NCBI GenBank assembly: GCA_035221665.1
Contig: CM069138.1
Location: 70,246,001 to 70,310,000 of the forward strand
DNA length: 64,000 nt
Source: Okamejei kenojei
Taxonomy: Eukaryota
Reading direction: 5' to 3'
Positions 4,701-60,471 of this stretch are shown one piece after another. Made by a program: the position numbers and the translations under genes. Below the pieces are notes generated by a model, which did no database searches, had not been told where the DNA came from, and saw nothing but the letters and a program-made list of their open reading frames with translations. Position 1 is the stretch's first letter. Each line of letters begins with the position of its first letter.

Positions 4701-5120
4701 GTACGCTTTCTCTCGTTAACCAAATGTGAATGATTTGTTGTATAACATAAATGAAGTATAGATTAAAATGAAGAAGTGTACATCGGATCCTTCACTAGAA
4801 AAGAGAGATTAATTCTTTGAATGGGGAGGCATCATTCGAACTAACCCCACTCATCAAGAATTTTAACCCATTTTTTGTAATATAATCATTGTCCTGGTGT
4901 CATACAGCACCGAGAGGCCTTTAATTCACCTCATCCATGCTATCCAAGATGCACCATCTAAAATAATTATATTTGCCTGCATTTGGCCCATATCCTGCTA
5001 AACTTGCCCATCCATGTACTGTTTTAAAAATGTTGTTCTAGTACCTGCCTCAACTACCTGATCTGGCAGCTCGTTCCATATTGCCACCACTCTGTTTGTA
5101 TAAATGTTGCCCCTCCGGTT

Positions 5121-5374
5121 CTTTTTTAAAAAATTTAGTATTTTTATTAGAAGTCATATACAATAGGAATATACAATTTAGAATAATATAATACATTTCA
5201 TATACAACATATACAACTTCTTGCTTTTGAATTTAATAATATAAAAGTAATATAAGCTATAAATTCAAAAGCAAGAAGTTGTATATGTTGTATATGAAAT
5301 GTATTATATTATTCTAAATTGTATATTCCTATTGTATATGACTTCTAATAAAAATATTAAATTTTTAAAAAAAG
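5121..5374. repeat. Inverted repeat, arms of about 115 bp (5121-5235, 5260-5374), 24-nt spacer
   Basis: Arms are near-perfect reverse complements by direct reading. Confidence 0.95.
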
Positions 5375-6429
5375 AGAGAAAGAGAAAGTTAGGTAAGGTG
5401 GTGAAAGTGATAGTTCGTGAAAAGTACAAGAAAAGAGAGAAAGGAGGAGAGATACAAAAAATAAAAATAAAAAAAATAAAATTAACAAGAATGTAAAGTA
5501 AAAAAGATAATAAAAGGAAAATAAAATGGAAGGGATAGACCTACTTCATATTTTTGCGCACCCCTCACCCGGTTCTGAAACAGTTTATTTTCAGGATTAT
5601 GTTGCACCATATGCTTGTAATAAATCGATAAAGGGAGACAAAATCTTTAAGAATTGGTCTGATTTGCCTGCTAGGACGAATCTCATATCTTCTAGGTGTA
5701 ACAATTCAGACATGTTTGAAATCCATATTTTAAGCATTGGTGTTGGTGCATTTTTCCAGAATTTTAATATAGGTTTTTGCCGTCACTAAGCCATAATTAA
5801 GGAAACTCTCTTGGAACAAAGTCAGCTCAGAGCCGGTCTCCATTGTTCCAAAGATAATCAATTCTGCGATGGGGTTCATTTCTGTTTTAAATACTTTTGT
5901 AAAAATTTCAAAAATTTCATTCCAAAACTTCTGAAGTTTTATGCAAAAGGCAAAAGAGTGTGCTATAGTTACATCTTGAGATAAGCATTTATCGCAGATG
6001 GGCGAGACATTTGGAAATATTTTATTCAATTTAGTTTTCGAGTAATATAATCTATGTAAATGTTTTAATTGAATTAAGGTATGTCTTACATTTATCGAGC
6101 ATTTATGTACATATAGCAAATATTTATCCCATCTGTCTTTCAAGATATTTATAGATCATTCTTGTTCCCAGTCTCTTCTGATTGTATCAGACGGTGGTAT
6201 CTCTATGTTTAAAATGATATTATACAAATATGATATTAAATTTGTAGAATCCGCATTTCTGTTCATAGCTTCATCTAGTATATCTGAAGGCGAAGTTTTA
6301 TGTTCTTTTATATGTTTTTTCCAGTAGTAACGGATTTGAAGGTATTTAAAGTACATTACTTTTCAGGTTATATTTAAGTTGTAGTTGTTGGAATGATAAA
6401 CAAATTCCCATTTCACACATTTCTCCAAA
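5125..6429 (-). mobile_element. 5'-truncated L1 (ORF2 C-terminus plus 3' UTR), different subfamily from the full-length copy
   Basis: ORFs 5730..6143 and 6156..6356 (YFKYLQIR; CSINVRHTLIQ..LHRLYYSK..SPICDKC) are homologous to 13197..13883; AATAAA and A-tail on the minus strand; candidate TSD GGTTCTTT at 5117-5124 and 6430-6437. Confidence 0.9.
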
Positions 6430-7670: not shown

Positions 7671-8108
7671 GCATTCAGAGGAATAGTTGTGAAGAAATGT
7701 CTGGGGCAGGTTTTGTGCAGGTAAAGTGAGAACCTTTCTATGTTGAGTGAACTGTAACTTTCTTACTTGCAGAAGCAGTTAGCAATTAAAAGATGAAAAC
7801 ACAGAGGGTCAAAGAGAGGAAACATTGCCAGAACATTTGCATGTTTACACTGCCATATAGATAAACATTAAAACTTTGGAAGATCTGGGTAATTAAAGCG
7901 ATGTGGTTCATTTATCATACAATATATCCTCGTAGGTTTCCGGTGGCGCTATGGAGCAGTAAGCCACAGCACCAGCCAGCTCCGCAAAAATTCTGCAAAA
8001 AAACGGGGATTTAAACAGATTTAAAACCACTTACCGATCGACTGCTTTCACTATCTGCCGCCTCAACACCGACGGTACCGGCTGACGTCATCAGCCCTGC
8101 GACGAATC

Positions 8109-9179
8109 ATGACGGCACGGAGCCCTACCGAGAAAACGAAGGGTAAAAAAACCCGGGCGAGAGCGGAGAAGGCCTGGGAGAAGCCTCGGACTCGAGTAGG
8201 GCCAGCTCCGTGGAAGACGTTTCCAGGAAAGCAGACACAGAGGTGAGGACTTGAGAATTTTTATTTCTCATCAGATGGCTGATTTAAAACGTGAAATGAA
8301 AGATATAAAGAAAGAAATGAAAGTAATACAGGAAGATATAAAGGAAGAAATATCTCAATTAATAATCAGATGACTTGATGAAAAATCAATGGCGTGAATT
8401 TCAAAAAGATATAAAGACGCAAATTGATAATAAGTTCAAGAAAGACTCAGAAATATTGAAGAATGAAATCATTGATATGATTAATAACTTGGAACGCAAG
8501 ATGGAGGTAAACTTGAAAATGTTAAAAAAGACTTTAAGCATAAGATTGACCCTATTGCAAAAGTGGTCGAACAACAAGTTGACGGCATTAAAAACCTTGA
8601 AAAGATAGCGGAGGCTAGTACTGTGTCTACAGCAAAGCTGATAACAGAACAAGAACGTCTACTGGAGTTGTTATCCAAAGTAACAGATAAATGCACGCAG
8701 CTGGAAGGCTATCAAAGAAGGCAGAACTTGAGGATTGCAGGGATTCCTGAAGGTTTAGAGAAACACGAAGACACTCGAGAATTCACTGCTAAATTACTGC
8801 AAGCTGTTTTATCTTTGGATGATATGCCTGTTTTAGCTCGTGCACACCGAGTCGGCAGAAGACAGACCAGTACAAACGCCCCCCCAAGACAAATCATTGT
8901 CAAGTTACAATATGATTTCACCCTCGAGGACATTATGCAAAGAGCCTCGAGAACAAAGAATCTGATGTTTCAAGGACAAAGAATCAGTATCTATCGAGAC
9001 TATCCCCAGAGGTTGCCAGAAAACGAAAAGCGTTTAACGAAGCCAAAAACCTTATGAGGGGTGTAGAAAACTTGAGATACGGTCTGAATTACCCCGCCAT
9101 CTTAAGAGTTACTTATAACAACGTGGAACACTTTTTCAAGACTCCAACAGAAGCAATGGAATTTGCAAAGCAGTTTTGA
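8109..9179 (+). pseudogene. L1 ORF1 (coiled coil plus RRM/CTD), frameshifted in this sequence
   Basis: Heptad-like segment (MADLKREMKDIKKEMK), RRQNLRIAGIPEG, RAHR, ISIYRDYP(P)EVARKRKAF...YPAILRVTY; start codon uncertain. Confidence 0.85.
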
Positions 9180-10070
9180 CACTTGAAAACCATCTACAAG
9201 CAAATATACTGCCTTTTTTCTTTTTTAAAGACCTAGCACGGTCTCTTGACATTTTATGAAACTCTATACGACAACATGGAATTAGAAGAAATCAGAAGGA
9301 ATGGACAATGTCGTATGGAACGAAATGTTTTCCCGGATTGGAAGAACCTCACCGAACATGGACAATTATTCATAATATACAACTAACATAAACAAATAAC
9401 ACACCTACTAAAATTATAACGCGGTTTTATTATTACTATGACTGTTATTAACCAAGACTCTGCACCATCGTTAACTAATACTACTAATAATTAATATCTT
9501 ATGTCCTGTTACATATGGGGATATCCCTTCCTCAATATATTTCTCCCTTTTTTTAATAATGACCTCTATTTTTTGTATTTTTAAAAAAAAAAAAAAAAAA
9601 ATTTCTTTAACTGTGGCTTTATAATTGGATTTTTTTTTAAAACTAACCTTAGATATATATACTTTTATGATGTTTAATATCACTCTTCTCATTTTTTTAA
9701 TACTATATTCCCGTTAAAATATTATTATGGAATAATAATTCCTTAAAATTAGAGCTGGCTAAATTAATAACATCAATGCCGGAAGCCTTTAGATTAATGG
9801 CCAACACAACTTGGCTTTCACAAACTACAAATATTTTATTTGTAGTTCTTCTATTCTTTATACACCTTTCTAAGCTTTTTATTCACTTTTCATTATGTTT
9901 TTATGTTTACTATATCTTTCAGTTTGAATGGAGCTATATACTGGAACAATGGAGATACACTCGTGAAGCACATAAGAGAGATCTAAAATTCATCTACTCG
10001 GTGTTCGGGTGTAAGGTTAAGTCTACTGCGCGGACCCTTGGACCCTATTCTAGATTCCCACAAATCTAAA

Positions 10071-13000
10071 ATGCAGGATTTAAAAAGAAATATGGGAACG
10101 AGGGATTAACCTTTTGCAGTTGGAATGTTAAAGGTATTAATGAACCAATAAAAAGAGGAAAAATATTGACACACTTAAAGGCAATGAAAGCTGATGTAAT
10201 TTACATCCAAGAAACTCACCTAAAGAAAGACGCTGAAAATAGGCTGAAAGCTAAATGGATAGATAAAATATACCACTCTTCCTTTACACACAAATCAAGA
10301 GCGTAGCAATATTATTTCGTAAAGGTACTTTATTTAAGCATATATCTACTATATCTGATAAAGATGGCAGATACATTATTGTAATAGGAGAAATAAATAG
10401 GGAAAAAATGATTTTTGTTAACATCTATGGTCCAAATTTTGATAGTCCTTTATTCTTTAAGAAAGTACTTAATAATATTCCAGAATTAACACACTACAAT
10501 TTGATAATTGGAGGAGATTTTAATTGTACATTAGACCCTTATTTAGATAGATCTTCAAAACAAAGGAAAACTAAATCGCACTCTAGTGATTTATTAAACG
10601 CATACATTCAAACGTCTAACATTAAAGATGTTTGGAGAACAGAAAATCCTACTGGTCGAGAATATTCCTTCTACTCGCCAGTACATAAAACCTATTCAAG
10701 AATAGATTACTTCCTAGTAGATGCAAAGCTTATCTCACTTACTTACGAATCCAAATATCATAATATTATAATTTCAGATCACGCACCATTAACATTTAAA
10801 ATTAAAATAAATGGTAAAACAGGAAATCTAGGACAATGGAAACTTAATCCACAAATTTTAAAAAATAAAACAACTCAGGAATACATCATAACCCAGATTA
10901 AGATGTTTTTTGAAATAAATGATCAACCAGAAATATCTCGCTCTTTATTATGGGAAACATTTAAAGCATATCTTCGAGGAATTATGATCTCTTCACAAGC
11001 ATTCCATAATAAGAAGATTCGGAAGGAACAACATGACTTAGAAAGGGAGATCAAACAATTAGATATACAGAATGCAACAAAATCAGATATAATAATACAT
11101 AATAAAATTGTAACATTGAAGTATAAATTAAATAAAATATATACTGATCAAGTTTTAAAATACTACCAACATACTAAACAATTGTTGTTTGAATTTGGAG
11201 ACAAACCACAAAAACTATTGGCTCGACAATTAAGGAAAATTGAAGCGGAAAAAATTATACATAGGATTAAATCACAAAACGGTGAATTATTAATACAACC
11301 CAAGGATATTAATGAAAGATTTATGCAATATTATAAAAATTTGTATACTGGTAACACAACAGTAAATAAAACAGAAATAGATGCCTTTTTTAAATGTATG
11401 TAACTTAAAAGAATTAGATTTACAAAATAGAGAATTTTTAAATGCCGATATTTCAATAAAAGAAATCCAAGAATCTATTAAATCTTTAAAAAATGGTAAA
11501 ACTCCAGGACCAGATGGTATAGGCTCGGAATTTTATAAAATTTTTCATGCCCAAATGGTCCCATATTTAAAATCATTATATGAACAGATATATATACAAG
11601 AGAAATTACCAGACACATTGAACGAATCTATTATAACACTTATACCCAAAATAAATAAAGATTTGGATGATCCAGGATCGTATAGAGCAATTGCTTTATT
11701 AAATACCGATCAAAAAATTTTAACAAAAATTCTTGCACAAAGACTAAGCAAAATTGTTAATGAATTAATTCATCCCGATCAAACAGGATTTATACCTAAA
11801 AGATATTCTTCATATAATTTAAGACGGTTATTTAATATTATATACTCGAAAAGAAGTGATAAAAAAGACTTAGTAGTCATCTCGTTGGATGCAGAAAAAG
11901 CTTTTGACCAGGTGGAATGGCCTTATCTATTTTCGGTGATGGAAGCCTTTAAGCTTGGTGATAAGTTTACTACTTGGATTAAATTATTATACGCAAATCC
12001 AACAGCTAGAATAATAACAAATTATATGTTATCAACTAAGTTTAGTTTATCTCGAGGTTGTAGACAAGGCTGTCCTTTATCACCATTACTGTTTGCGTTA
12101 GCAATCGAACCCCTTGCTCAAAGGGTAAGACTACATCCAGAAATATATGGATACGATACTAAAGATACTAAGAATAAAATCTCGTTATATGCGGACGATA
12201 TACTACTTTATATTACAAAACCGGAAATAAGTATCTGTAATTTGTTAAAACTAATAACGGAATTTGGTTTAATTTCAGGATATAGCATCAATTGGAATAA
12301 AAGTGAACTTATGCCAATAACCATGAATAATTTACAGATATTACAACAATTTCCTTTCAAGATAACAAATGAAAATATTAAATATCTTGGTATTTTTGTT
12401 ACAAAAGATTTGACTCTTATTTAAATCTAATTTCCCGTTATTATTGAATAAATTAAATAAAAATATCTTATATTGGAAAAGCTTACCTATCTCAATGTTA
12501 GGTAAAATAAACGCAATAAAAATGATTTTCCTCCCACAATTATTATATTTATTTCAATCAATCCCGATATATCTTTCTAAAAATTTCTTTAAAAAAGTAG
12601 ACTCAATAGTCACTAACTTTATTTGGGACTACAAAAATCATAGAATAAATAAAAAACATTTATGTAAAGCTAAAATAAACGGGGGTTTAGCTTTACCAAA
12701 TTTATGTTCTATTATTGGGCAGTTAATATTAGAAATATGAATTTTTGGTTAGGAGAAATAGATAATAAACCAAATTGGTTAAAAATGGAAAGAGAAGACT
12801 GTTTTCCATTTGAAATTAGCTCTATAATATTTGCTAATATTAATGTACCTAAGAAAACTTATAGCGAAAATCTAATAATAGAAAGTGGAATACGTATTTG
12901 GAAACAAATAAAGAAAACACTAAAACTAAAATTTATACCGCTAGCTCTTACAATTGCCAATAATTTTACGTTTAAACCGTCAATGATGGATAAAGCTTTT

Positions 13001-13883
13001 ATAACAATGGAAAAATAAAGGAATTCTAAACATAGGGGATCTCTATAAGGATAACTCATTTCTTTCATTTCAAGATTTACAACAAACCTACGGGCTTCAT
13101 AATAATGAATATTTCAGATATTTACAAATCAGAAATTATATTTCCGCAAATACACAAGAACTTAGAAATAGAAAGAGTGAAATTTTAGATGAATGCTTGA
13201 ATAAACACCCAAATACAGAAAAAATGATATCATACATTTATAACATTTTGTTGGAAAGTGATATCCCATCATCGGAAATACATAGACAGCGCTGGGAAAA
13301 TGAATTAAGTCAAATAATAAGTCCAGAAATATGGGAAGAAAGCCTACAACATATACATTATTGCTCTTTAAACGCTAAACATGCACTTATACAGTTTAAA
13401 ATCTTACATAGATTACATTATTCTAAATCTAAACTACATAATATATTTCCAAAACTATCACCTATATGTGATAAATGTCAAATCATGGAAGCAACTCTGT
13501 CACACTCATTTACTAATTGTACGAAGATTTTACAATATTGGAATGAAATATTCAAAACAATCTCGAAAGTTATTAATATTACTATGATTTATGACCCAAA
13601 GTTAATCATACTTGGAATACCGGAAATGGAACAAATAATTACAAGGAATCATAGAACTTTTATCGACTATTCTTTAATAATTGGGAAAAAATTAATATTA
13701 AAATTTTGGAAAGGCCCTGTATCCCCAACAATTAAAATGTGGAATACAGAAATGACGGAGACACTTTACTTGGAGAGATTGAGACTTGCCCTCATGGACA
13801 GGTTAGATCTCTTCAAGGAGATATGGTCTCCCTATATTAAATATCTACAGGGTCACAACGGTTCGGCGCAGGGACTTGACTGA
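10071..13883 (+). pseudogene. L1 ORF2 (APE endonuclease, reverse transcriptase, Cys-rich C-terminus), frameshifted in this sequence
   Basis: SWNVKG, IQETH, GGDFN, SRIDY, SDHAP (EN); KTPGPDG, SLDAEKAFD, GCRQGCPLSPLLF, YADD (RT); CDKC...H...C. Confidence 0.95.
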
Positions 13884-14579
13884 GGCCTGAATATCTGAGT
13901 GGATGAAGAAATACACATAACAAATCATGAATGTATCTCCAAGATTGGATTACTTAGTAATACTTTAATCTCCATCAAACTTTTCATACCTTCTTTTCTA
14001 TTTTCTATTCCTTTTTTCTATCTCTTTATCTTTAATTAAGGAAAAAATTATAGAAACATACTATATAAACTTTTAATATGTACACACTTATCTCTGTTTG
14101 TATGAAAAAGATTATAGATGTCTTAAACTTGTAATTATATAAAACTATGTACTTTCAATTATACAATAACTATGAAATATAAAATTAACAATAATACAAA
14201 CATTATTAATATTTTGATAACATTATGAATATTAAAAAAAATGTTGTTTAAGATTGGGTACTACGTAGTTAAATTAGCGGGGATTTCTATTTGGTAATTA
14301 GAAGAATATCTATGATTTGAGAAATCTAAGTGTATTACTTATATTAGGAATATACTACATATACTCCCAATTATATAAAATAAATAATAACGGAATGTAT
14401 AATGGATAATACTACAATTATCATAAATAGTACTAATTAATAATCAATACGTTATAATTTTACACATTGTATAAATTTCAATGTCGTATAAGAGTGTACT
14501 TGGTATATACTGTTTCTACAATAAAAAAATATTTAAAAAAAAAAAAAACAATATATCCTCGTAAACTAGATGGTACCTT

Positions 14580-19872: not shown

Positions 19873-20088
19873 CTCACAGCAATATATTCCCCTCATGATT
19901 TTGTACAGCTCTATGAGGTCACCCCCACAACATCCTGCACTCCAAGGAATAAAGTACTAGCCTGCCCAACCTGTCCCCATTGCTCCAGCTCTTGAGTCCT
20001 GGCAACATCCTTGTAAATCTTTTCCGCACTCTTTCCAGCATAATGGCATCTTTCTTATAACGGGGTGACTAAAACTGAACATGACTGA

Positions 20089-20739
20089 TGTAAATAAGCA
20101 ATTTACAAACTCTTAAGGTGTGCAACATCTTTTAATGATAGCACAGGGTATTACATACATCTTCAAGCACTGGCTACATTCTTCTACTGAGCTGTACCCA
20201 GGAAGGGGAAGGCGTTATGATTACTGTTAACTAGGCGGGGTTAATGGGACTGAGGTAACTATATTATTGGTTGCATATAAACCATCTACATCCTTCCCCT
20301 TAGAAAATCAAAAACAGATTGTTGTCACGACAACAGAATTAAACAGCAGAATTAAACAAACTCGCCATAACGAACAGGTGGCTTGCTGACCCGGCCCAAG
20401 CGCGTACGGATGTCTCCCCCTTCCCCCGAAAGAGCAGAAGAAACAGGAGGACGCGAGGCAGCTGGGGAACCAGAGAAGGGTGGCGGAGTTCTGGTCTCCA
20501 AGTGGAGGCGTGGGTTCGGATCCCACTTCTGACACCATGTAAATAAGCAATTTACAAACTCTTAGGTTGTGCAACATCTTTTAATGATAGCACAGGGTAT
20601 TACATACATCTTCAAGCACTGGCTACATTCTTCTACTGAGCTGTACCCAGGAAGGGGAAGGCGTTATGATTAATGTTAACTAGGCGGGGTTAATGGGACT
20701 GAGGTAACTATATTATTGGTTGCATATAAACCATCTACA
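20089..20739 (-). mobile_element. Miniature non-coding LTR retrotransposon (TRIM)
   Basis: Two 202-bp TG...CA LTRs (20089-20290, 20538-20739; 3 mismatches), 247-bp interior, PPT (AAGGGGAAGGA, minus strand of 20291-20301), PBS TGGTGTCAGAAGTGGGAT next to the 5' LTR, flanks ACTGA/GCTGA. Confidence 0.93.
20487..20537 (+). other. Copy of the 3' half of mature tRNA-Leu(CAA) including CCA (extended PBS; not a tRNA gene)
   Basis: AGTTCTGGTCTCCAAGTGGAGGCGTGGGTTCGGATCCCACTTCTGACACCA matches the vertebrate Leu-CAA 3' half as I recall it (anticodon stem 3' side, variable arm, T arm, acceptor stem, CCA). Confidence 0.88.
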
Positions 20740-27760: not shown

Positions 27761-29557
27761 ACAAATATTGGACCCAATTAGATAATCGAAAACCCTCATA
27801 CCTTTTCAGTTGTGGCCATTTGATGTCTATGGTGGAGCCACTGCAGGTGTGAAGGTGGAATTAATGACCGTTGCCCAACGCATTAGATGCAATGGAACTG
27901 CAAATGTTGGACTCTTATATAGAACAGGAGTAACTCAGCGGGTCAGGCAGCGTCCCTAGATGACATGAATAGTCAGCGTTTTCGGTCAGGACTCTTCTTC
28001 GCACTGATTGTAGTAGAGGGTAGGCCAATGCATGCCCTCCAGATATGCTACCTGACCTGCTGAGTTAGTGCAGCACTCTATATTAGACATGCAGATGCCC
28101 CTAGTACTTTGACAATTTTAAAGTTGTCACCTTCCATTGATTTTTTTAGGCCAATATTTTAATAGCTTGGTTGCAGCCAAACACAGGAGAAAATAAATAG
28201 TAATTGATTTACAGAAAATAGAGTAGCATTTAAAGCAAGGAACTATCTTTAGCTGTGTTTGTGTGCAGAGCACTTCCCATTCAATCAGTCCTCTGGAGTC
28301 ATAGAGAAGCCACATCACTTAATTTTAGCAGCTTTCACTTTTAGTTTGTGGGAAGAAAAGATCTGAATGGAGACAAGCAGGAGTTACAGCAAGAGGGATA
28401 TTTTTACATCACTCTCAGCACTTTATCAAACAAAGCATCCACATGGGGAATGGGAAACGATAGATTATAAAACCAGACTTCCTCTGATGCCAGTAAATGG
28501 GTATTTAATCTTCCTATTGCAGGCATTCACTCTCTGGAGCCTGAAATGAATATACTTCAGGGGACATCAGCTGAGCTGTTGTGCTTCCCGACCAAAAATA
28601 CCATCAGATTTTATTTCGGGTGTGGTCTAAAGATATCAGTATTCGGCTGTTCCCCGAGGGCCTCAGGAGTCTGTGCTCTTTCGAGGTGGAAATGCTCTGG
28701 AGAGATTTCTGCTAATTGCACAATTGCGTTGGTCTTCATCTGTCATCTGACACCAACCTGGAGAGGCAAGATTTAGAAAGCTGGCTTTCAGGTTTGCCAA
28801 AGAGATCTTAAAAGAGAAAATAACAGCATCCATTTTTATAAGCTGGCTGGAAAGTACCTTGGTCAACTTGCTAGAGAAGTAATATCTAGAATTAGATGCA
28901 AGGAGCCGCCACTTAGACAGGCTTATACTGGAGCTCAGGGACTAAAAAAAAAATCCCCAGGGCAGTACTAACAGAAGAAAATTCAGGAAGGTATTAAGGT
29001 CAGAAGGTCATAAGGAATTGGAGTAGAATTAGGCCATTCGGCCCATCAAGTCTACTCCACCATTCACTCATGGCTGATCTATCTCTCCCTCCTAACCCCA
29101 TTCTCCTGCCTTGTCTCCATAACCTCTGACCCCCTTACTAATCAAGAAACACCCATACTAATCAAGATGCTTTGATTTTCAATTTTATTGAAAAATATTG
29201 GAAGTGGCCAAATCAGACAGGTTGCTTGGCAGTCTAAAATCACAAGGGGAATGAGCAATCTTTCCAGTTGGTGTTGGGAGAGGGTGGATGGGTGATGGAT
29301 GGTGGGAGCATGGGGACAGGGCACCTTTGCGGCTGGAGATCACTTCATGAAACCTGTAGGAAAGTGCTGGCTCTTTAAAAGAATTGCCGGTTTTATCCCA
29401 CACCTCGGCAACATATCATAACCCTGTAAATCTACCCCATAATCGTCATCACGTGCGCGTCTCCATTTAGCGGCTTGGAATAGTTCCTGTGGAAATAAGA
29501 CTGACGCCACTCTTTCTGCAGTGTCTTTTGCATTTAACAACCCCACATGTTGAAATC

Positions 29558-31770: not shown

Positions 31771-31787
31771 CAATGCTAGACATAAAA

Positions 31788-31964
31788 AGACACAAAGTGC
31801 TGGAGTAACTCAGCAGATCAGGCAGCATCTGTGGGAAACACAGAAAGGTAACATTTGGGTTGGAACCCTTCGGGTCGGGGGGGGGGGGGGGGGGGGGTCC
31901 CACCTATCTTTGTTCTCCAGAGAGGCTGCCTGACCTGCTTGAAATACTCCAGCACTTTGTGTCT
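31788..31964. repeat. Palindrome made of two inverted Penelope-type termini with a central G run
   Basis: agacacaaagtgctggagta ... tactccagcactttgtgtct. Confidence 0.75.
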
Positions 31965-32724
31965 TTTTTTATCAGCAGATATGGTCAGTTCCCTTATACG
32001 CCAAATGGTTTGAGAAGGCTTTCTTTCAGCAACAGTCCATGCACTCGTCAGAGAAAAAATCACCAGGGAAACCAGGAAAAACTGGCCCCTCGTTCTCATT
32101 GCTCAGGCAAACAATATTTGCAAACGGAATGGCAATCAAAAAAATTTGGTTGCTCACAAAAAAAGTCCTGTTCTTTATGCTGCACACCATTCCACCCTGA
32201 GCAAGTCAGTTCTGTGGTCCTTACTCTGACAATCATTTCCCTTTATTCCCCCAAGTACCAAACTTACTAAAATCATTTAAACTCATTTTCATTTTCCATC
32301 CTTCTTGAGAGGACATCAACCTTTTTGTCCAATGTTTATTTTTGGGATTTTGCCATCGCCAACGAGGCCAGAATTTATTGCCTTATCCCTAATTTCCCTT
32401 GAGATGGTGCTGATGAATCACTTTCTTGAAGTAGAGTTCACCACTTCCCGTGAAGGTTATCCCACAGTGTTTAGACCCAGTAATGCTGTGGTGTGCACTT
32501 TGGAGGGAACCTTCAGGTGGTGGCGCTCCCATGCACACACTGCCCTGGTCTTTCTTGGGAATAGCCGTGGCTTCGGGAGATACTGTCAGGAGTCATGATT
32601 CAAGACTGTTTTATTGTCACATCTCAAAACAGAACAATGAAATTCTTACTTGCAGCAGCACAACAGGTATGTAAACATAGTACTCTGTAAAACACGTCAT
32701 AAACAACAAAGAAAGGTTAGCATA

Positions 32725-33342
32725 TAAGTTCATAAGTGATAGGAGCAGAATTAGGCCATTCAGCCCATCGTCAACTCCGTGATTCAATCATGGCTGATCT
32801 TCCTCCTAACCTCATTCTCCTGCCTTCTCCCCATAACCCCGGATACCCGTACTAATCAAGAATCTCTCTATTTCTACCTTAAAAATATCAATTGACTTGA
32901 CCTCCACAACATTCTGTGTCAGTGAAATCCAAAGATTCACCACCTTCTGATTAAAGAAATTCCTCCTCATCTCCTTCCTAAAGGAACATTCCTTTCATTC
33001 TGAGGCTATGACATCTAGTCGTAGACTCTCCCACTAGTGGAAACATCCTCTCCACATCCAGTCTATCCAGACCTCTCACTATTTGGTAAGTTTCAATCAT
33101 CCTTCTACACTCCAGCAAGTAGAGGCCCAGTACCGTCAAACGCTCTTCATATGTTAACCCACTCATTCCTGGGATAATTCTCGGAAACCTCCTCTGGACC
33201 CTCTCCAGTGCCAACACATCCTTCCTCAGATATGGGGCCCAAAACTGCTCACAATATTCCTAATACGGTCTGACCAGCGCCTTGTAGAGCCTCAGCATTA
33301 CATCCCTGTTTTTGAATTCTAGTCCTCTTGAAATAAATGTTA
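32725..33342 (-). mobile_element. CR1/HER1 LINE, 5'-truncated
   Basis: ORF 32978..33217 LERVQRRF.RIIPGM.GLTYEERL. Confidence 0.85.
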
Positions 33343-38794: not shown

Positions 38795-40399
38795 CATAGA
38801 AACATAGAAACATAGAAAATAGGTGCAGGAGGTGGCCATTCAGCCCTTCGAGCCAGCACCGCCATTCATTGTGATCATGGCTGATCGTCCCCTATCAATA
38901 ACCCGTGCCTGCCTTCTCCCCATATCCCTTGACTTCACTAGCCCCTAGAGCTCTATCTAACTCTCTCTTAAAACCATCCAGTGACTTGGCCTCCACTGCC
39001 CTCTGTGGCAGGGAATTCCATAAATTCACAACTCTCTGGGTGAAAAAGTTTGTTCTCACCTCAATCTTAAATTACCTCCCATTTATTCTAAGACTGTGGC
39101 CCCTGGTTCTGGACTCAACCAACTGGGAACATTTTTCCTGCATCTAGCTTGTCCAGTCCTTTTATAATTTTATATGTTTCTATAAGATCCCCCCTCATCC
39201 TTCTAAACTCCAGTGATTACAAGCCTAGTCTTTCCAATCTTTCCTCATATGACAGTCCCGCCATCCCAGGGATCAATCTCGTGAACCTATGCTGCACGGC
39301 CTCAATCACAAGGATGTCCTTCCTCAAATTAGGAGACCAAAACTGTACACAATACTCCAGATGTGGTCTCACCATAGCCCTATACAACTGCAGAAGAACC
39401 TCTTTACTCCTATACTGAAATCCTCATGTTATGAAGGCCAACATTCCATTAGCTTTCTTCACTGCCTGCTGTACCTGTAAGCCAACTTTTAGTGACCGGT
39501 GTACAAGGACGCCCAGGTCTCACTGTACCTCCCCCTTACCTAACCTAACCCCATTGAGATAATAATCTGCCCCCTTGTTTTTGCCACCAAAGTGGATAAC
39601 CTCACATTTATCTATGTTATGCTGCATCTGCCACGCATCTGCCCACTCATTCAACCTGTCCAGGTCACCCTGCAACCTCCTAAAATCCTCTTCACAGTTC
39701 ACACTGCCACCCAGCTTTGTGTCATCCACAAAACATGCTAGTGTTGCTCCTAATTCCCTCTTCCAAATCATTAATATATATGGTAAACAGTTGCGGCCCC
39801 AACACTGAGCCTTACGGCACTCCACTTGCCACTGCTGTCATTCTGAAAAGGACCCGTTCTCTCCTACTCTTTGCTTCCGGTCTGCCAACCAATTTTCTAT
39901 CTATGTCAACACCTTACCCCCAATACCATGTGTTCTAATTTTAGTCACCAGTCTCCCATGCGGGAACTTATCAAAGGCTTTCTGAAAGTCTAGATACACT
40001 ACATCCACTGGCACCCCTTCATCCATTTTACTTGTCACATCCTCAAAAAATTCCAGAAGATTAGTCAAGCATGATTTCCCTTTCATAAATCCATGTTGAC
40101 TTGGACTAATCCTTTTACTGCTATCCAAATGCCTTATATAACCTCTTTAATAATAGACTCCAGCATCTTTCCCACCACTGAAGTCAGGCTAGCTGGTCTG
40201 TAATTCCCTGTTTTCGCTCTCGCTCCTTTCTTGAAAAGTGGGATAACATTAGCTATCCTCCAATCCACAGGAACTGATCCTGAATCTATTCAACATTGGA
40301 AAATGATCACCAATGCGTCCACTATTTCTAGAGGCACCTCCCTGAGGACCCTGGGATGCAGACCATCAGGCCCAGGGGGCAGACCATCAGGCCCAGGGG
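38795..40399 (-). mobile_element. CR1/HER1 LINE, 1.6 kb, 5'-truncated
   Basis: SQHGFMKGKSCLTNLLEFFE, VYLDFQKAFD, DDTKLGG, KCEVIHFG; (catagaaa)n tail. Confidence 0.93.
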
Positions 40400-40967
40400 T
40401 CTGATCATGTTTTATACTCTGCCGATAAAATTTCCACTGAAATAAAGTGGCACCACTGAAGATGAAGGATAATAAAATTATAGTTAACTGACCAGTATAC
40501 TGAACACATAATTATAACAGCCCAGGCAGCCTATGATCTGTTCTAGGGATCCAATGGCTTCACAATTTTTCCTGCGTTCATTATATGAATATTAAAAAGA
40601 TTTCAGATTAGTTAAGTCCCTTTGGTCACAGCTCCTCACAGTCTAATATTCAAACAGTTTAAACAACAACAAAATAACATGAGAAGACAACACACTATGG
40701 TGCTGGGGTGTGGCGGCATTTTTCCAGCAGCTGGGCATGATAATCATCAAAGATGCCCACCACTCTGGCCATGCTCCATTCTCGCTGCTACAATCATAAA
40801 GAAGAGTGTAGGACCAGAAGGCAGAGCCTCAGGATAAAAGGACGTACCCTTAAAAAGGAGATGAGGAGGAATTGATTTTCATCAGTGTGTGGTGAATCTG
40901 TGGAATTCATTGCCACAGAAGGCTATGGAGGCTCATTGGGTAAATTTTCACTAAGGCCGTGGGAGAA

Positions 40968-41566
40968 TGGAGGAGGCCCAGGACAGTTTGAGACCAAGCG
41001 GAGGCTTGGCGACCTCCCGGTGAGCACTTCAACTCCCCCTCCCATTCCGTGATCTGACCTGCTCGGTCTGGGCCTCCTCCACGGCAGAATGAGCAACACC
41101 ACAGTTGATGAGGAACGGCGCACCTCATATTCCGTTAGGGAGTTGCATCCTTTATGAACAAATTGAATTTTCAATCATTCTGTTAAAACCCTTGCTGTCT
41201 CCTCCCCTTCCCATTAGGATCTTAAACCAGCCCCGGGCCCTGGCATTCCCTCTCTCTCTATCTCCCCCCCCTACTCTAGTCGCACCAGCTTATCATTTTC
41301 ACACCACAAGCTTACAATGGCTTGTTTTTTATCATTGATGGCATTTTTGCATATCTTAGAATAACATTCATTGTTCTTTACCTCTCACAGAACAATTCTT
41401 ACTTTACGGAAAAAAAAAAATCTATATATATCTCGTTTCCCGATCCCCCTGAACAAATAAACAGTTCTGAAGAAGGGTCTTCGACCCGAAAAACGTCGCC
41501 TATCTCCTTCGTTCCTTAGATGCTGCTGCACCCGCTGAGTTTCTCCAGCCTTTTGTGTACCCTCCA
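40968..41566 (+). mobile_element. Penelope-like element 3' fragment (GIY-YIG C-terminus plus terminal repeat), indel-rich
   Basis: ETKRRLGD and HFNSP remnants; homologous, in opposite orientation, to 45233-45735. Confidence 0.8.
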
Positions 41567-43292: not shown

Positions 43293-43961
43293 AGGCCCTG
43301 TCCCACTTACGTGTCCTTGGCACGTAAATTACGCGACCTCGTCTTCACATCGAGGCGCACGGTCCCACTGAGAAACGCAAAGGTGTATGGAGTTGCGCAC
43401 GGTATCGTGTGGCACTCTGAAATTTTGTAGCGAATGAAATCTTCGCGCGCCAACGCCTGTCGCGTAACTGACAGCCAAAGTGGGACAGGCCCAAGACCCT
43501 GGCACGACGCAATGTCTCACCTCCTTCAGCAGCAGAACCAGGCAAACGATCGCCGAGCTCGGCCTGGGGCTCCCAGCCGTTGCGGTCCGGATCCGCCCCC
43601 ACTTCTACTCCCAGAGCGGGGCCAAGCAAATTGAAAATAGACACAAAATGCTGGAGGAACTCAACGGGTCTGGCAGCATCTCTGGAGAGAAGGAATGGGT
43701 GACGTTTCGGGTCAAGACCCTTCTTTCAGACTGAAGAAGAGTCTCGACCCGAAACATCACCCATCGCTTCTCTCCAGAGATGCTGCTGGTCCCGCTGAGT
43801 TATTCCTGCATTTTGTGTCCATCTTCAAATGAAGTCACATGCTCCAGACGGCTGTGCGGATAAATGAAGTCGCGCGCAACCTTCGCGGGACCGTCACGGC
43901 TCCACACGCCCACAAAGTCGCGTGATTAGTGTGCCAAGGGCACGCAAGCGGGACAGGGGCT
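43293..43961. mobile_element. PIF/Harbinger-like non-autonomous DNA transposon
   Basis: TIRs of about 45 bp starting AGGCCCTGTCCCACTT; TTA TSD at 43290-43292 and 43962-43964; sits inside a CR1 3' fragment. Confidence 0.85.
43631..43828. repeat. Palindrome of two head-to-head Penelope terminal repeats (arms about 99 bp, axis at 43730)
   Basis: ...gacccttctttcag-a-ctgaagaagagtctcgacccgaaac...; the arms are diverged reverse complements. Confidence 0.9.
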
Positions 43962-43964
43962 TTA

Positions 43965-44498
43965 CTTGTCAAGAATCTGTTAATCTCCGCCTTAAAAATA
44001 TCCAAGGACGGCCTCCACAGCTTTCTGTGGCAATGAATTCCACAGATTCACCATTCAGCAATGAAAATAAATTCCTCCTCATCTCTTTTCTAAAGGTACG
44101 TCATTTTATTCTGAGGTTCTGCCATTGACACCCATTGGTGGAAACATCCTCTCTACATCCACTCTATCCAGGCTTATCACTATTCTGTAAGTTTCAATGA
44201 GGTGTCCCCCCCCCGCATGCTATCAAAGGCTCATCATAGAGGTATGTTAACCCAATCATCTCTGGGATCATTCTCAAAAACTTCCTCTGGACCATCTCCA
44301 GTGCCAGCACAACCTTCCTCAGATATGTGGCCCAAAACTTCTCACAATTCTCTAAATGCAGTCTTATGTATTATAAAGCCTCAGCTTTACATCCGTGTTT
44401 CTATATTCTTCTCCTTTCAAAATAAATGCTAACATAGCATTTGCCTTCCTTACTACCGAATCCACTTGCAAATTAACTTTTTGGGAATCCTGCACCAG
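43965..44498 (-). mobile_element. CR1 3' fragment (continues from about 43185-43289)
   Basis: VNLQVDSVVRKANAMLAFI...KLRLY remnant; similar to 32725-33342. Confidence 0.75.
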
Positions 44499-45232
44499 CA
44501 TAGAAACATGGACATAGAAACATAGAAAATAGATGCAGGAGGAGGCCATTCGGCCCTTCGAGCCAGCACCGCCATTCATTGTGATCATGACTGATCATCC
44601 CCAATCAATAACCCGTGCCTGTCTTCTCCCCATATTCCTTGATTCCACTAGCCCCGAGAGCTCTATCTAACTCTCTGTTAAATCCATCCAGTGATTTGGC
44701 CTCCATTTCCCTCTGGCAGGGAATTCCATAAATTTACAACTCTCTGTGAGGAAAAGTTTTTTCTCACCGCAGTCTTAAATGACCTCCCCTTTATTCTAAG
44801 ACTGTGGCCCCTGGTTTTGGGCTCGCCCAACATTGGAAACATATGTCCTGCATCTAGATTGTCCAGTCCTTTTATAAATTTATGTTTCTATAAGATTCCC
44901 CCTCATCCTTCTAAACTCCAGTGAATACAAGCCTAGTCTTTTCAATCTTTCCTCATATGACAGTCCCGCCATCCCAGGGATCAATCTTGTGAACCTATGC
45001 TGGACTGCTCAATCACAAGGATATCCTTCCTCAAATTAGGAGACCAAAACTATACACAATACTCCAGATGTGGTCTCACCAGAGCCCTATACAACTGCAG
45101 AAGAACCTCTCTACTCCTATACTGAAATCCTCTTGTTATGAAGGCCAACATTCCATTTCAGTGACCGGTGTACAAGAACGCCCAGGTCTTGCTGTACCTC
45201 CCCCTTACCTAACCTAACCCAGTTAAGATAAT

Positions 45233-45735
45233 GGGGGGTACACAAAAGGCTGGAGAAACTCAGTGGGTGCAGCAGCATCTAAGGAGCGAAGGAGATAGGC
45301 GACGTTTCGGGTCGAGACCCTTCTTCAGACTGGTCAGGGATCAGGGAAACGAGAGATATAGACGGTGATGTGGAGAGATAAAGAACAATGAATGAAAGAT
45401 ATGCAAAAAAGTATCGATGATAAAGGGAACAAGCCATTGTAAGCTGTTTGTGGTGTGAAAATGAGAAGCTGGTGCGACTAGGGTGGGGGAGGGAGATAGA
45501 GAGAGAGGGAGAATGCCAGGGCCCGAGGACTGAGGGAGAGGTGGGAAGGGGAGGAGACAGCAAGGGTTAACAGAATTGAGAAAATTCAATGTTCAAGCCC
45601 GAAGGATGCAGACTCCCCAAGCGGAATGGAGGTGCTGTTCCTCCAACTTGCGGTGTTGCTCATTCTGGCCGTGGAGGAGGCCCAGGACCGAGAGGTCGGA
45701 TACGGAATGGGAGGGGGAATTGAAGTGCTGAGCCA
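45233..45735 (-). mobile_element. Penelope-like element 3' fragment
   Basis: Minus strand translates AQHFNSPSHSVSDLSVLGLLHGQNEQHRKLEEQHL then (after a shift) SLHPSGLNIEFSQFC*, the GIY-YIG C-terminal pattern HF...E...L..L.P.GLN; followed by the terminal repeat. Confidence 0.88.
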
Positions 45736-48162
45736 AAGATCAAAAGATATTAACTAAAATATTAGCACAAAGGCTAAGCACAGTTATTAATGAATTAATT
45801 CACCCCGATCAAACAGGATTTATACCAAAACGATATTCCTCAAATAACTTGAGACGATTATTCAATATTATATATTCGAAAAGAGGTATTAAAAAAGATT
45901 TAGTAGTTATTTCGTTAGATGCAGAGAAAGCCTTCGATCAGGTGGAATGGTCCTATTTGTTTTCGGTTATGGAAACTTTTAAATTGGGAGAGAAGTTCAT
46001 TACTTGGATCAAATTATTATATACTAACCCAACAGCTAGAATAATAACAAATCAAATGTTACCAACTAAATTCAATTTATCTCGAGGCCGTAGACAAGGT
46101 TGCCCTTTATCCCCCTTACTGTTTGCACTTGCAATAGAACCCTTAGCTCAGAGGGTGAGATCACATCCTGAAATATATGGGTATGATACTAGAGATACTA
46201 AAAATAAAATTTCCTTATACGCAGATGATGTATTACTTTATATCACAAAACCAGAAATTAGTATCCAAAATTTGTTAAAATTAATAACTGAATTCGGATC
46301 TTTTTTCAAGATATAGTATTAATTGGAATAAAAGTGAACTTATGCCAATAACGGTAAATAACTTACACATATTACAACAATTTCCTTTTAAGATAACAAA
46401 TGAAAAAATTAAATATCTTGGAATTTATGTAACAAAAAGATTTGATTCTTTATTTAAATCTAACTTCCCACTATTATTGAATAAATTAAATAAGAATATT
46501 TTATATTGGAAAACTCTACCTATTTCAATGTTAGGCAAAATTAAATATAATAAAAATGATTTTTCTTCCACAATTATTATATCTTTTCCAATTAATTCCG
46601 ATATATCTTCCTAAAAATTTCTTTAAGAAGGTGGACTCCCTAATTACTAACTTTATCTGGGATTATAAGAGCCATAGAATAAATAAAAAAAAACATTTAT
46701 GTAGATTAAAAATAAATGGAGGTTTAGCATTACCAAACTTTATGTTTTATTACTGGGCAGTTAATATTAAAAATATGAATTTTTGGTTAGAAGAGACAGA
46801 TAACCAACCAATTTGGTTAAATATGGAAAAAGAAGATTGTTCTCCTTTTGAAATCAGTTCAATAATATTCGCTAATATTAATTTAGGTAAGAGAACCTAC
46901 AGTGAAAACCCGATAATAGAAAGTGGAATACGTATTTGGAAACAAATAAAGAAACCATTAAAACTGAAATCTATACCATTAGCCCTTACCATTGTAAATA
47001 ATGTTACATTTAAACCCTCAATGATGGATAAAGGCTTTTTACAATGGAAAAATAAGGAAATTATTAGGATGGGTGATATCTACAAGGAAAACTCTTTTCT
47101 TTCATTTCAAGAATTACAACAAATTTATGAACTACATTCTAAAGATTATTTTAGATACTTACAAATCAGAGACTATGTAAAAGCAAACACACAGGAACTT
47201 AGAAATAGAAAGACAGAAATTTTAGATAAATGTCTAAATAAAAATCCGACCACAGAAAAAATGATTTCATATATATATATATAATATCTTATTGGAAAAT
47301 GATGTCCCATCAACAGAAATTTATAGACAATCTTGGGAAAATGAATTAGGTCAAATTATAAGACCAGAAGTATGGGACGAAAGTTTACAACATATACACC
47401 ATTGTTCGTTAAATGCTAGACACTCTCTTATGCAGTTTAAAATACTACATAGACTACATTATTCAAAATCCAAACTACATAACATTTTTCCAAAAGTATC
47501 TCCCATATGTGATAAATGTCAACATTTAAAAGCTAATCTGACACACTCATTTACAAATTGTGCAAAAATTACAAAGTTTTGGATAGAAATATTTAGGATA
47601 ATTTCGAATGTTGTTAATATAAATCTGACCCCTGACTCAAAGTTAATAATACTAGGAATATTGGAAACAGACCAATTAATAACAACGAATCAAAGAATTT
47701 TTATTGATTATGGTTTAATAATTGGAAAGGTCCTACATCCCCGACAATCAAAATGTGGAATACAGAAATGTCGGAGACACTCCATCTGGAGAGATTGAGG
47801 CTTGTCCTAATGGACAGGTTGGATCTCTTCAGAGGGATATGGTCTCCATATATTGAATATTTACAGGGTCAAAGTGGCTCAGTGCGAGGGCTTGACTGAG
47901 GCCTGAATAATAGAATGGATGAAGAATTACGCAAAATAAATCATGGTTATATCTCCAATGACGGATTATTGATTAATACTCCATTCACTTCCTTATTTTT
48001 TATATTATTTTTCTCTATCTTTTCCTACTTTATAAAAAAAATTAAAAAACTGTATAGAAACATAGTCTTAAATGTTAATATTAATATTAATAATATTATG
48101 AATGTATCTAATAAGTATTTTTTATTAATATGTTTCTACAACTAATAAAAATATTTATCAAA
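45736..48162 (+). mobile_element. 5'-truncated L1 (RT to 3' end), related to 7935-14547
   Basis: SLDAEKAFD, QGCPLSPLLF, YADD, SPICDKC; AATAAA at 48144-48149. Confidence 0.95.
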
Positions 48163-48973
48163 ACAGTTCACACTGTCACCCAGCTTTGTGTCATCCACTT
48201 GCTAGTGTTGCTCCTAATTCCCTCTTCCAAATCATTAATATATATGGTAAACAGTTGCGGCCCCAACACCGAGCCTTACGGCACTCCAGTCGCTACTGCC
48301 TGCCATTCTGAAAAGAACCCGTTCACTCCTACTCTTTGCTTCTGGTCTGCCAACCAATTTTCTATCCATGTCAACACCCTACCCCCAATACCATGTGCTC
48401 TAATTTTAGTCACCAGTCTCCCGTGCGGGACCTTATCAAGGGCTTTCTGAAAGTCTAGATACACTACATCCACTGGTACCCCTTCATCCATTTTACTTGT
48501 CACATCCTCAAAAAATTCCAGAAGATTAGTCAAGCATGATTTCCCTTTCATAAATCCATGTTGACTTGGACTAATCCTTTTACTGCTATCCAAATGCCCC
48601 CATTATTACCTCTTTAATAATTGACTCCAGCATCTTTCCCACCACCAAAGTCAGGCTAATTGGTCTGTAATTCCCCATTTTCTCTCTCGCTCCTTTCTTG
48701 AAAAGCGGGATAACATTAGCTATCCTCCAATCCACAGGGACTGATCCTGAATCTGAAGCACTCCCAGGTCCCTTTACATCTCTAAATATATAAATCCCCA
48801 ATTAACATCATCTAATGTTTTGACCTCAGTTGTTACATTGATTTTGTTTTAGCATAGGTTTGGCTAGCTTTACTTGAGGAGAATTGCTGCCACAGCAGTT
48901 GCTCCTTGGCCTTTGGTAGCTTTTTCCCAAACAGACATGTACTCATCACCTCCAACCAGAGAACCCCATAATA

Positions 48974-60310: not shown

Positions 60311-60471
60311 NNNNNNNNNNNNNNNNNNNNNNNNNNNNNNNNNNNNNNNNNNNNNNNNNNNNNNNNNNNNNNNNNNNNNNNNNNNNNNNNNNNNNNNNNN
60401 NNNNNNNNNNNNNNNNNNNNNNNNNNNNNNNNNNNNNNNNNNNNNNNNNNNNNNNNNNNNNNNNNNNNNNN
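60311..60471. other. Assembly gap (161 N)
   Basis: Run of n characters. Confidence 1.

Follow-up and report, generated by a model that had tools for sequence, protein, structure and literature searches.

In the 64,000-nucleotide stretch of Okamejei kenojei DNA analysed here (the window), a young CR1 is split by two retroelements of other classes that are joined head to head: the 3′ fragment of a Penelope-like element on the minus strand (45233..45735) and a 5′-truncated L1 on the plus strand (45738..48162). As judged from the comparisons set out below, this is a real, nested structure, in which 130 bp of the CR1 have been lost at the site of the insert. Its origin is probably ordinary. The balance of probability tilts modestly towards two successive, ordinary insertions by target priming, the later of which would have been accompanied by an insertion-mediated deletion. 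The first-pass annotation had proposed instead that both ends of one break primed cDNA synthesis on two unrelated RNAs. The anatomy on which that proposal was built has held up, whereas the view that such a layout points to a single event has not.

The interruption of the CR1 becomes apparent from a sister copy in the window. In a self-BLAST comparison, positions 44512-45232 match sister positions 38802-39563 and positions 48163-48754 match 39694-40287; between these matching halves the sister keeps exactly 130 bp (39564-39693, minus strand) that are absent at the locus under study. A second, older CR1 sister near 42.5-43.0 kb likewise retains the stretch, and the original description of a CR1 interrupted at 45232/48163, with the missing 130 bp held by a sister, is thereby confirmed. 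Inside the insert, no trace of the missing 130 bp was found (best local score 23; shuffles gave a mean of 21 and a maximum of 32). The host CR1 lies on the minus strand. Its 3′ part with a microsatellite tail (44501..45232) stops at the left junction, and its RT-coding 5′-side part (48163..48756), itself 5′-truncated, begins at the right one. Its target was an older CR1-like LINE, also on the minus strand, the left part of which (43963..44500) matches 32850-33342 at 74% and which is continuous into 48757 onward once the host-CR1 block is removed. The TSD search places a 4-bp duplication around the host CR1, with the left copy (AGCA) at 44497..44500 and the right copy at 48757..48760 (both on the plus strand), the latter supported also by the read-through, after which the older CR1 resumes. 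Because this single 4-bp TSD lies in an older CR1 that reads through, and because the density of copy-specific differences is equal in the two halves (9/721 and 8/592, with 16 of the 17 confirmed as private by the sister), the halves are, on sequence grounds, one copy. Substitutions relative to the sister amount to 7.2% in the left half and 4.8% in the right, a difference that is not significant (p=0.08). The host CR1 also carries a 38-bp deletion relative to the sister at 45156/45157, where loose ends occur in all four runs of relatives, and a 5-bp post-insertion deletion near 48197.

The two parts of the insert match window copies at 41023-41566 and 11708-13964, respectively (self-BLAST), bearing out their initial identification as a minus-strand Penelope 3′ fragment and a plus-strand L1. 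According to homology and protein matches, the Penelope piece consists of the end of the GIY-YIG ORF and a pLTR, and has its native 3′ end at 45233. It encodes the C-terminal 55 codons of that ORF, with one frameshift near 45628. A 34-aa frame of the piece has matches in 18 proteins and aligns with the C-terminus of protein P0121 at 79-89%; the protein atlas gave no usable match for it. In two of the five proteins checked, a GIY-YIG match, weak and below the Pfam cutoff, lies just upstream of the matching stretch. Taken as they stand, these matches argue that the fragment carries the C-terminal end of the GIY-YIG endonuclease ORF. P0121 is a predicted 236-aa protein in which a LINE-type RT piece is fused to a Penelope GIY-YIG C-terminus, and is probably a gene call spanning another nested LINE/Penelope junction. 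The pLTR of our fragment contains a motif (45301..45328, minus strand; CUGA-AGA, a short stem and GAAAC) that we take to be a hammerhead-like core from its familiar pattern. In an Rfam search of 40-50 kb of the window, no hammerhead family reached E<=1, and folding of a 56-nt pLTR piece did not yield the canonical hammerhead structure.

Of the window's other Penelope arms, 12 were assessed by eye: the 3′ end falls at the same point in six and carries a tail of about 33 nt in three; the remaining three are ambiguous. The CR1 flank next to the Penelope 3′ end starts with ATT. The anole Penelope protein has been described as cutting an ATT motif and having two RT start sites (PMC11167929); the ends seen here match this description, two preferred 3′ ends 30-40 nt apart and an AT-rich or ATT target being features of Penelope-like elements. 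The related copy at 40957-41566, which belongs to the same subfamily, differs from the 45 kb copy by about 30 small indels, possibly reflecting a low-quality stretch; part of its interior is deleted, and its 5′ end carries a short segment in inverted orientation. One letter common to these two copies, at 45663, is missing from 98-99% of the depth in four relatives. Three of the ten other Penelope loci in the window are head-to-head Penelope pairs (27929-28075, 31780-31966 and 43641-43818). In the pair at 43.7 kb, the apex coincides with a short palindrome that immediately precedes the hammerhead-like core; in the pair at 31.9 kb, it carries a run of about 20 G.

The L1 piece extends from the start of the RT domain of ORF2 (RVT_1, E 6.8e-31) to the stop codon (47897-47899), followed by a 3′ UTR and a short A tail. 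It comprises 706 codons with four frameshifts and no stops, and its protein relatives are about 1265 aa long and possess both APE and RT. An AATAAA signal is present at 48144, and the 3′ terminus is identical to that of a full-length L1 in the window. Both copies end directly before ACA, a likeness of site based on one other L1; the L1 ends near 5.1-5.4 kb differ. An ORF2 with APE and RT, the polyA signal, the A tail and a sister with ORF1 and a TSD all argue for assigning the right-hand element to the L1 clade of LINEs. The full-length copy (7935-14548) has an ORF1 region and a clean TSD of 15-16 bp (7920, 14549), and its 3′ UTR exceeds that of the truncated copy at 45738-48162 by about 400 bp; its target does not resemble the mammalian TT/AAAA site.

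At the inner junction, Penelope homology stops at 45735, as defined by the 41 kb sister copy, and L1 homology begins at 45738, as defined by the loose-end consensus of eight contigs of run X1 and also by the sister L1. The homology limits on the two sides leave two extra bases (AA) at 45736..45737 and no microhomology; the direct join at 45735/45736 initially reported was off by these two filler bases. Complementarity is also absent from this junction, unlike at the apex of the 43.7 kb Penelope pair. No TSD flanks the insert: the best common word is a 5-mer 8 bases from the left junction, at chance level. By this search, the full-length L1 is flanked by a 16-bp TSD and the host CR1 by one of 4 bp. 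The earlier claim that a TSD is lacking is therefore upheld by a search with two positive controls. We considered the 5-mer, CAGTT, as a TSD of the insert and rejected it, as it lies 8 bases off the junction and the CR1 frame runs on across it, differing from the sister there by one replacement and two synonymous changes. Also sustained was the claim that the lesion is bordered on either side by the native 3′ end of one of the elements, 45233 being common to half of the 12 arms and 48162 corresponding to the end of the full-length L1. Each outer junction resembles the ordinary 3′ junction of its family, and this appearance fits all four histories considered below, namely sequential insertion, a single event, a later deletion and a read-through RNA.

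Relatives were approached through sequencing runs, in which the best fractions of words matched were 0.58 (organism A), 0.40 (B) and 0.26-0.30 (C-G). Flank contigs of the best-matching runs differ from the window in 6/189 and 8/~242 letters, and these runs therefore appear to be from other species. Contigs were compared for 4 of the 24 listed runs (X1, X8, X22 and X20). None of the 32 contig pieces listed for these four relatives' runs (a further 388,912 pieces, 1,462 joints and 6,562 loose ends exist) spans any of the three junctions, and none among those listed represents an allele or a relative with a single element. One X8 contig begins about 26-28 bases inside the right end of the host CR1, below the 31-base rule; there is a hint that the host CR1 may be present in organism B. 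The summed depth of near-identical L1 relative to CR1 is 0.20 in X1, 0.30 in X8, 0.011 in X22 and 0.007 in X20, and that of Penelope is 0.7-1.5 in all four runs, neither value being a copy number. The scarcity of the L1 in X22 and X20, set against the abundance of Penelope in all four, suggests that the L1 subfamily expanded late, when the Penelope family was already abundant, a pattern that does not date the two copies.

For the copies themselves, we counted high-share differences from the relatives' paralogues (35 of the 40 listed, 80 in total): 1/503 in Penelope, 17/2425 in L1 and 17/1313 in the host. The density of differences does not differ significantly between Penelope and L1 (p=0.34, with low power); the corresponding values are p=0.07 for L1 and the host and p=0.03 for Penelope and the host. 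As 7 of the 17 L1 letters are common to the other L1 copy, they are probably not private, and the private counts are lower still; the sole Penelope letter is common to the 41 kb copy. Both inserts thus look younger than the host CR1 and are not separable in age from each other. A reading of sites 46352, 46396 and 46473 as placing the L1 copy after the split from B was dropped because their letters match the distant L1 sister and are probably ancestral.

According to the sequential history that we prefer, the first element (Penelope at 45232/3 or L1 at 48162/3) would have inserted into the CR1. Later, the other element would have nicked the target slightly more than 130 bp away, facing the first, and started cDNA synthesis from that nick. 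The 5′ end of this second element would then have been joined beyond the nick, after loss of target DNA and with the addition of two filler bases. The DNA lost would include the 130 bp of CR1, the inner TSD copy of the first element and probably part of that element's 5′ end. We thus infer two events, with the deletion accompanying the second and either element being possibly the first. We favour this route because it requires both the deletion and the absence of a TSD. The deletion is needed likewise if it came later and independently, whereas under a single event or a read-through RNA it becomes a second rarity. The original choice, between one event and two insertions followed by a later deletion, was incomplete in that it omitted a second insertion making its own deletion into the first.

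The features expected of an insertion-mediated deletion, a native 3′ junction, no TSD and target loss on the 5′ side, are all present. Each outer junction fits its own element, the Penelope end being followed by ATT and the polyA-signal end of L1 lying before ACA. The AA filler, at an inner junction devoid of complementarity, has a precedent in zebrafish ZfL2-2, about half of whose copies carry additional nucleotides at the 5′ junction (PMC4245944). As for frequency, target deletions have been reported for about 2% of human-specific L1s (PMC1920257), short deletions for 7.4% of germline L1 (PMC12016303) and long truncations of more than 20 bp for 2 of 30 ZfL2-1 inserts in HeLa cells (PMC4245944). 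For Penelope insertions, the available text of a Chlamydomonas mutation-line paper gives no deletion rate (PMC9977147). In a simulation using the element positions of this one window, 0.9-1.5% of deletions of 130-3000 bp ended in a facing element. Were 1-5% of insertions to carry such a deletion (assumed fractions, including that for Penelope), about 1-7 such layouts would be expected per 10,000 insertions, a rate that is overstated for two young copies as old Penelope arms were counted. The inseparable ages (p=0.34) speak against the sequential route, in that similar young ages are a prediction of one event, but the lean is mild.

The locus has much in common with known L1IMD and L-TST insertions, which, as described in PMC1920257 and PMC4245944, combine a normal 3′ junction with a missing TSD, loss of target sequence 5′ of the insert and extra 5′ bases. 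It differs from them in that the far breakpoint lies in an element of another class on the opposite strand, which retains its own 3′ end, and in that either element may have made the deletion. NCLI loci are similar as well, with a target deletion (18/21 loci), no TSD and non-L1 sequence beside the L1 (PMC1920257), one of them having an Alu at the 5′ flank (PMC1920257). However, the L1s at these loci are 3′-truncated, without poly(A) (PMC1920257), whereas the present L1 retains its polyA signal at 48144 and a short tail. An endonuclease-independent L1 insertion was accordingly rejected, the L1 3′ end being complete. We also rejected a DNA patch copied from elsewhere, since both ends of the insert coincide with native 3′ ends.

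A single event involving two RNAs is unlikely in our assessment. Penelope RT, which is telomerase-like, and L1 ORF2p would each have primed one end of the same germ-line break. Breaks staggered by 130 bp would have left two facing 3′ ends. A Penelope RNP would have primed one of them at the internal site where it usually starts and an L1 RNP the other on poly(A), with the cDNAs then end-joined and the 5′ overhangs lost. The anole Penelope protein both cuts and extends the two strands in vitro (PMC11167929), and head-to-head is the most frequent Penelope arrangement in the published accounts (PMC3846280, PMC8557442). Together with the three head-to-head pairs among the ten other Penelope loci here, this suggests that a second primed end is routine for these elements. 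Two-RNA priming also has precedents: germline antisense tRNA/L1, 5S/L1 and Alu/L1 chimeras have been ascribed to twin priming (PMC13174262), tumours contain pairs of L1s joined 5′ to 5′ (10.1101/2024.08.27.596794), and a reciprocal end can be extended on a different mRNA (10.1101/2024.12.14.628481). Moreover, the two closest relatives carry both families in abundance, and the ages of the copies overlap. Nevertheless, a single event would need rare co-priming and a long deletion at once, and a shared TSD, the hallmark of two-RNA chimeras, is absent. That the inner junction shows no complementarity counts mildly against it, and the fact that each end was cut at its own family's kind of site does so weakly. 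Alu, furthermore, is adapted to the enzyme of L1, and Penelope is not. Human L1 copies number roughly half a million. Only about 12-17% of 452 Alu/L1 chimeras, some tens, are antisense (PMC13174262).

The systems invoked for a single event resemble the present fusion only in part. Twin-primed chimeras of two RNAs, as described in PMC13174262, share with it an antisense segment derived from a non-L1 RNA at the 5′ end of a truncated L1. They are, however, bounded by TSDs (present around both parts in all 452 Alu/L1 cases), have been shown by comparison across species to have arrived together, and involve a partner without an enzyme of its own (PMC13174262). At our locus, opposite segments joined 5′ to 5′ are present, but a single enclosing TSD is absent, 130 bp are lost and the partner is of an autonomous class and ends at its own RT start site. 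In head-to-head Penelope insertions (PMC3846280, PMC8557442, PMC11167929), the 3′ end likewise points outward at ATT and the 5′ end abuts an inverted retro-segment. Here, by contrast, the second arm is an L1 and the apex shows neither palindrome nor overlap, while the cases detailed in these reports often have TSDs of 8-10 bp. Synchronous L1 bridges (10.1101/2024.08.27.596794; 10.1101/2024.12.14.628481) also have cDNAs joined at their 5′ ends and 3′ ends anchored outward. As far as these accounts go, they are somatic (in tumours or L1-induced clones), involve one enzyme and usually connect distant loci, whereas the present structure is in an assembled genome, local and cross-class. In the literature searched, mostly without subscription papers, we found no earlier report of a Penelope/L1 head-to-head chimera, and the accessible portions of a retrozyme preprint (10.64898/2026.07.22.740005) and of PMC9977147 hold nothing decisive on the origin of the fusion.

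Two clean insertions about 130 bp apart, followed by an unrelated deletion from within Penelope to within L1, would account for the structure as well, although we rate this course as improbable and place it just behind a single event. Both 3′ junctions are normal, as it would require, and a 2-nt filler without microhomology fits end-joining. The host CR1 does bear other post-insertion deletions, those at 45156/7 and near 48197, but most deletions in these copies are far shorter than 130 bp. In addition, three events would have to fit into the short life of young copies, as gauged by the absence of stops from 706 L1 codons.

Classical twin priming on a single read-through RNA, transcribed from a source locus with a sense Penelope just upstream of the relevant point in L1 ORF2, would explain equal ages by one event, and pairing over 1-3 bases would be possible between the left primer end and the end of Penelope. 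We consider it very improbable, as it demands an unusual source locus and, in addition, a priming event precisely where Penelope natively ends. Such 5′ inversions, moreover, are described almost solely for human L1 in human cells and come with TSDs of 10-20 bp (PMC4245944). No joint of this kind is among the 15 listed of 1477 joints, which does not amount to a real test. An assembly misjoin of two repeat-rich loci is barely credible: none of the listed reads or contigs spans the inner junction, the assembly has a 161-N gap at 60311-60471 and the Penelope copy at 41 kb is rich in indels, but the two halves of the CR1 are colinear, show equal divergence and lie within a single TSD in an older CR1 that is itself continuous, and an assembler would have had no common sequence at the inner junction to cause a misjoin.

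If the insertions were sequential, the locus is a tidy, ordinary case of nested retrotransposons with an insertion-mediated deletion, and a warning that head-to-head layouts without a TSD can mimic twin priming. If they were simultaneous, it would bear on the open question of how Penelope elements form their inverted ends. With a foreign cDNA as the second arm, independent priming of two DNA ends would become more plausible than fold-back self-priming, the second arm of Penelope being then an open DNA end usable by any RNP. Two-RNA twin priming would, in that case, no longer be confined to L1 and its passengers but would include a pair of autonomous classes. One locus without orthologues cannot carry a claim of cross-class priming; a genome-wide count of such joins could.

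The window as a whole is rich in repeats, with CR1-like and L1 LINEs, SINEs and Penelope fragments. Pattern scans for more copies of the present kind gave no matches in viral contigs and one chance bacterial match in metagenomes. A direct repeat of 203 bp with 98.5% identity, its units 449 bp apart, occupies 20088-20290 and 20537-20739. The window also contains a 116-bp inverted repeat with two mismatches (5120-5236 / 5275-5391), which corresponds to the 3′ end of an L1, the A tail of each copy pointing outward. More minus-strand L1 follows 5275-5391 up to about 6430, the whole being either an L1+L1 head-to-head or a fold-back structure.
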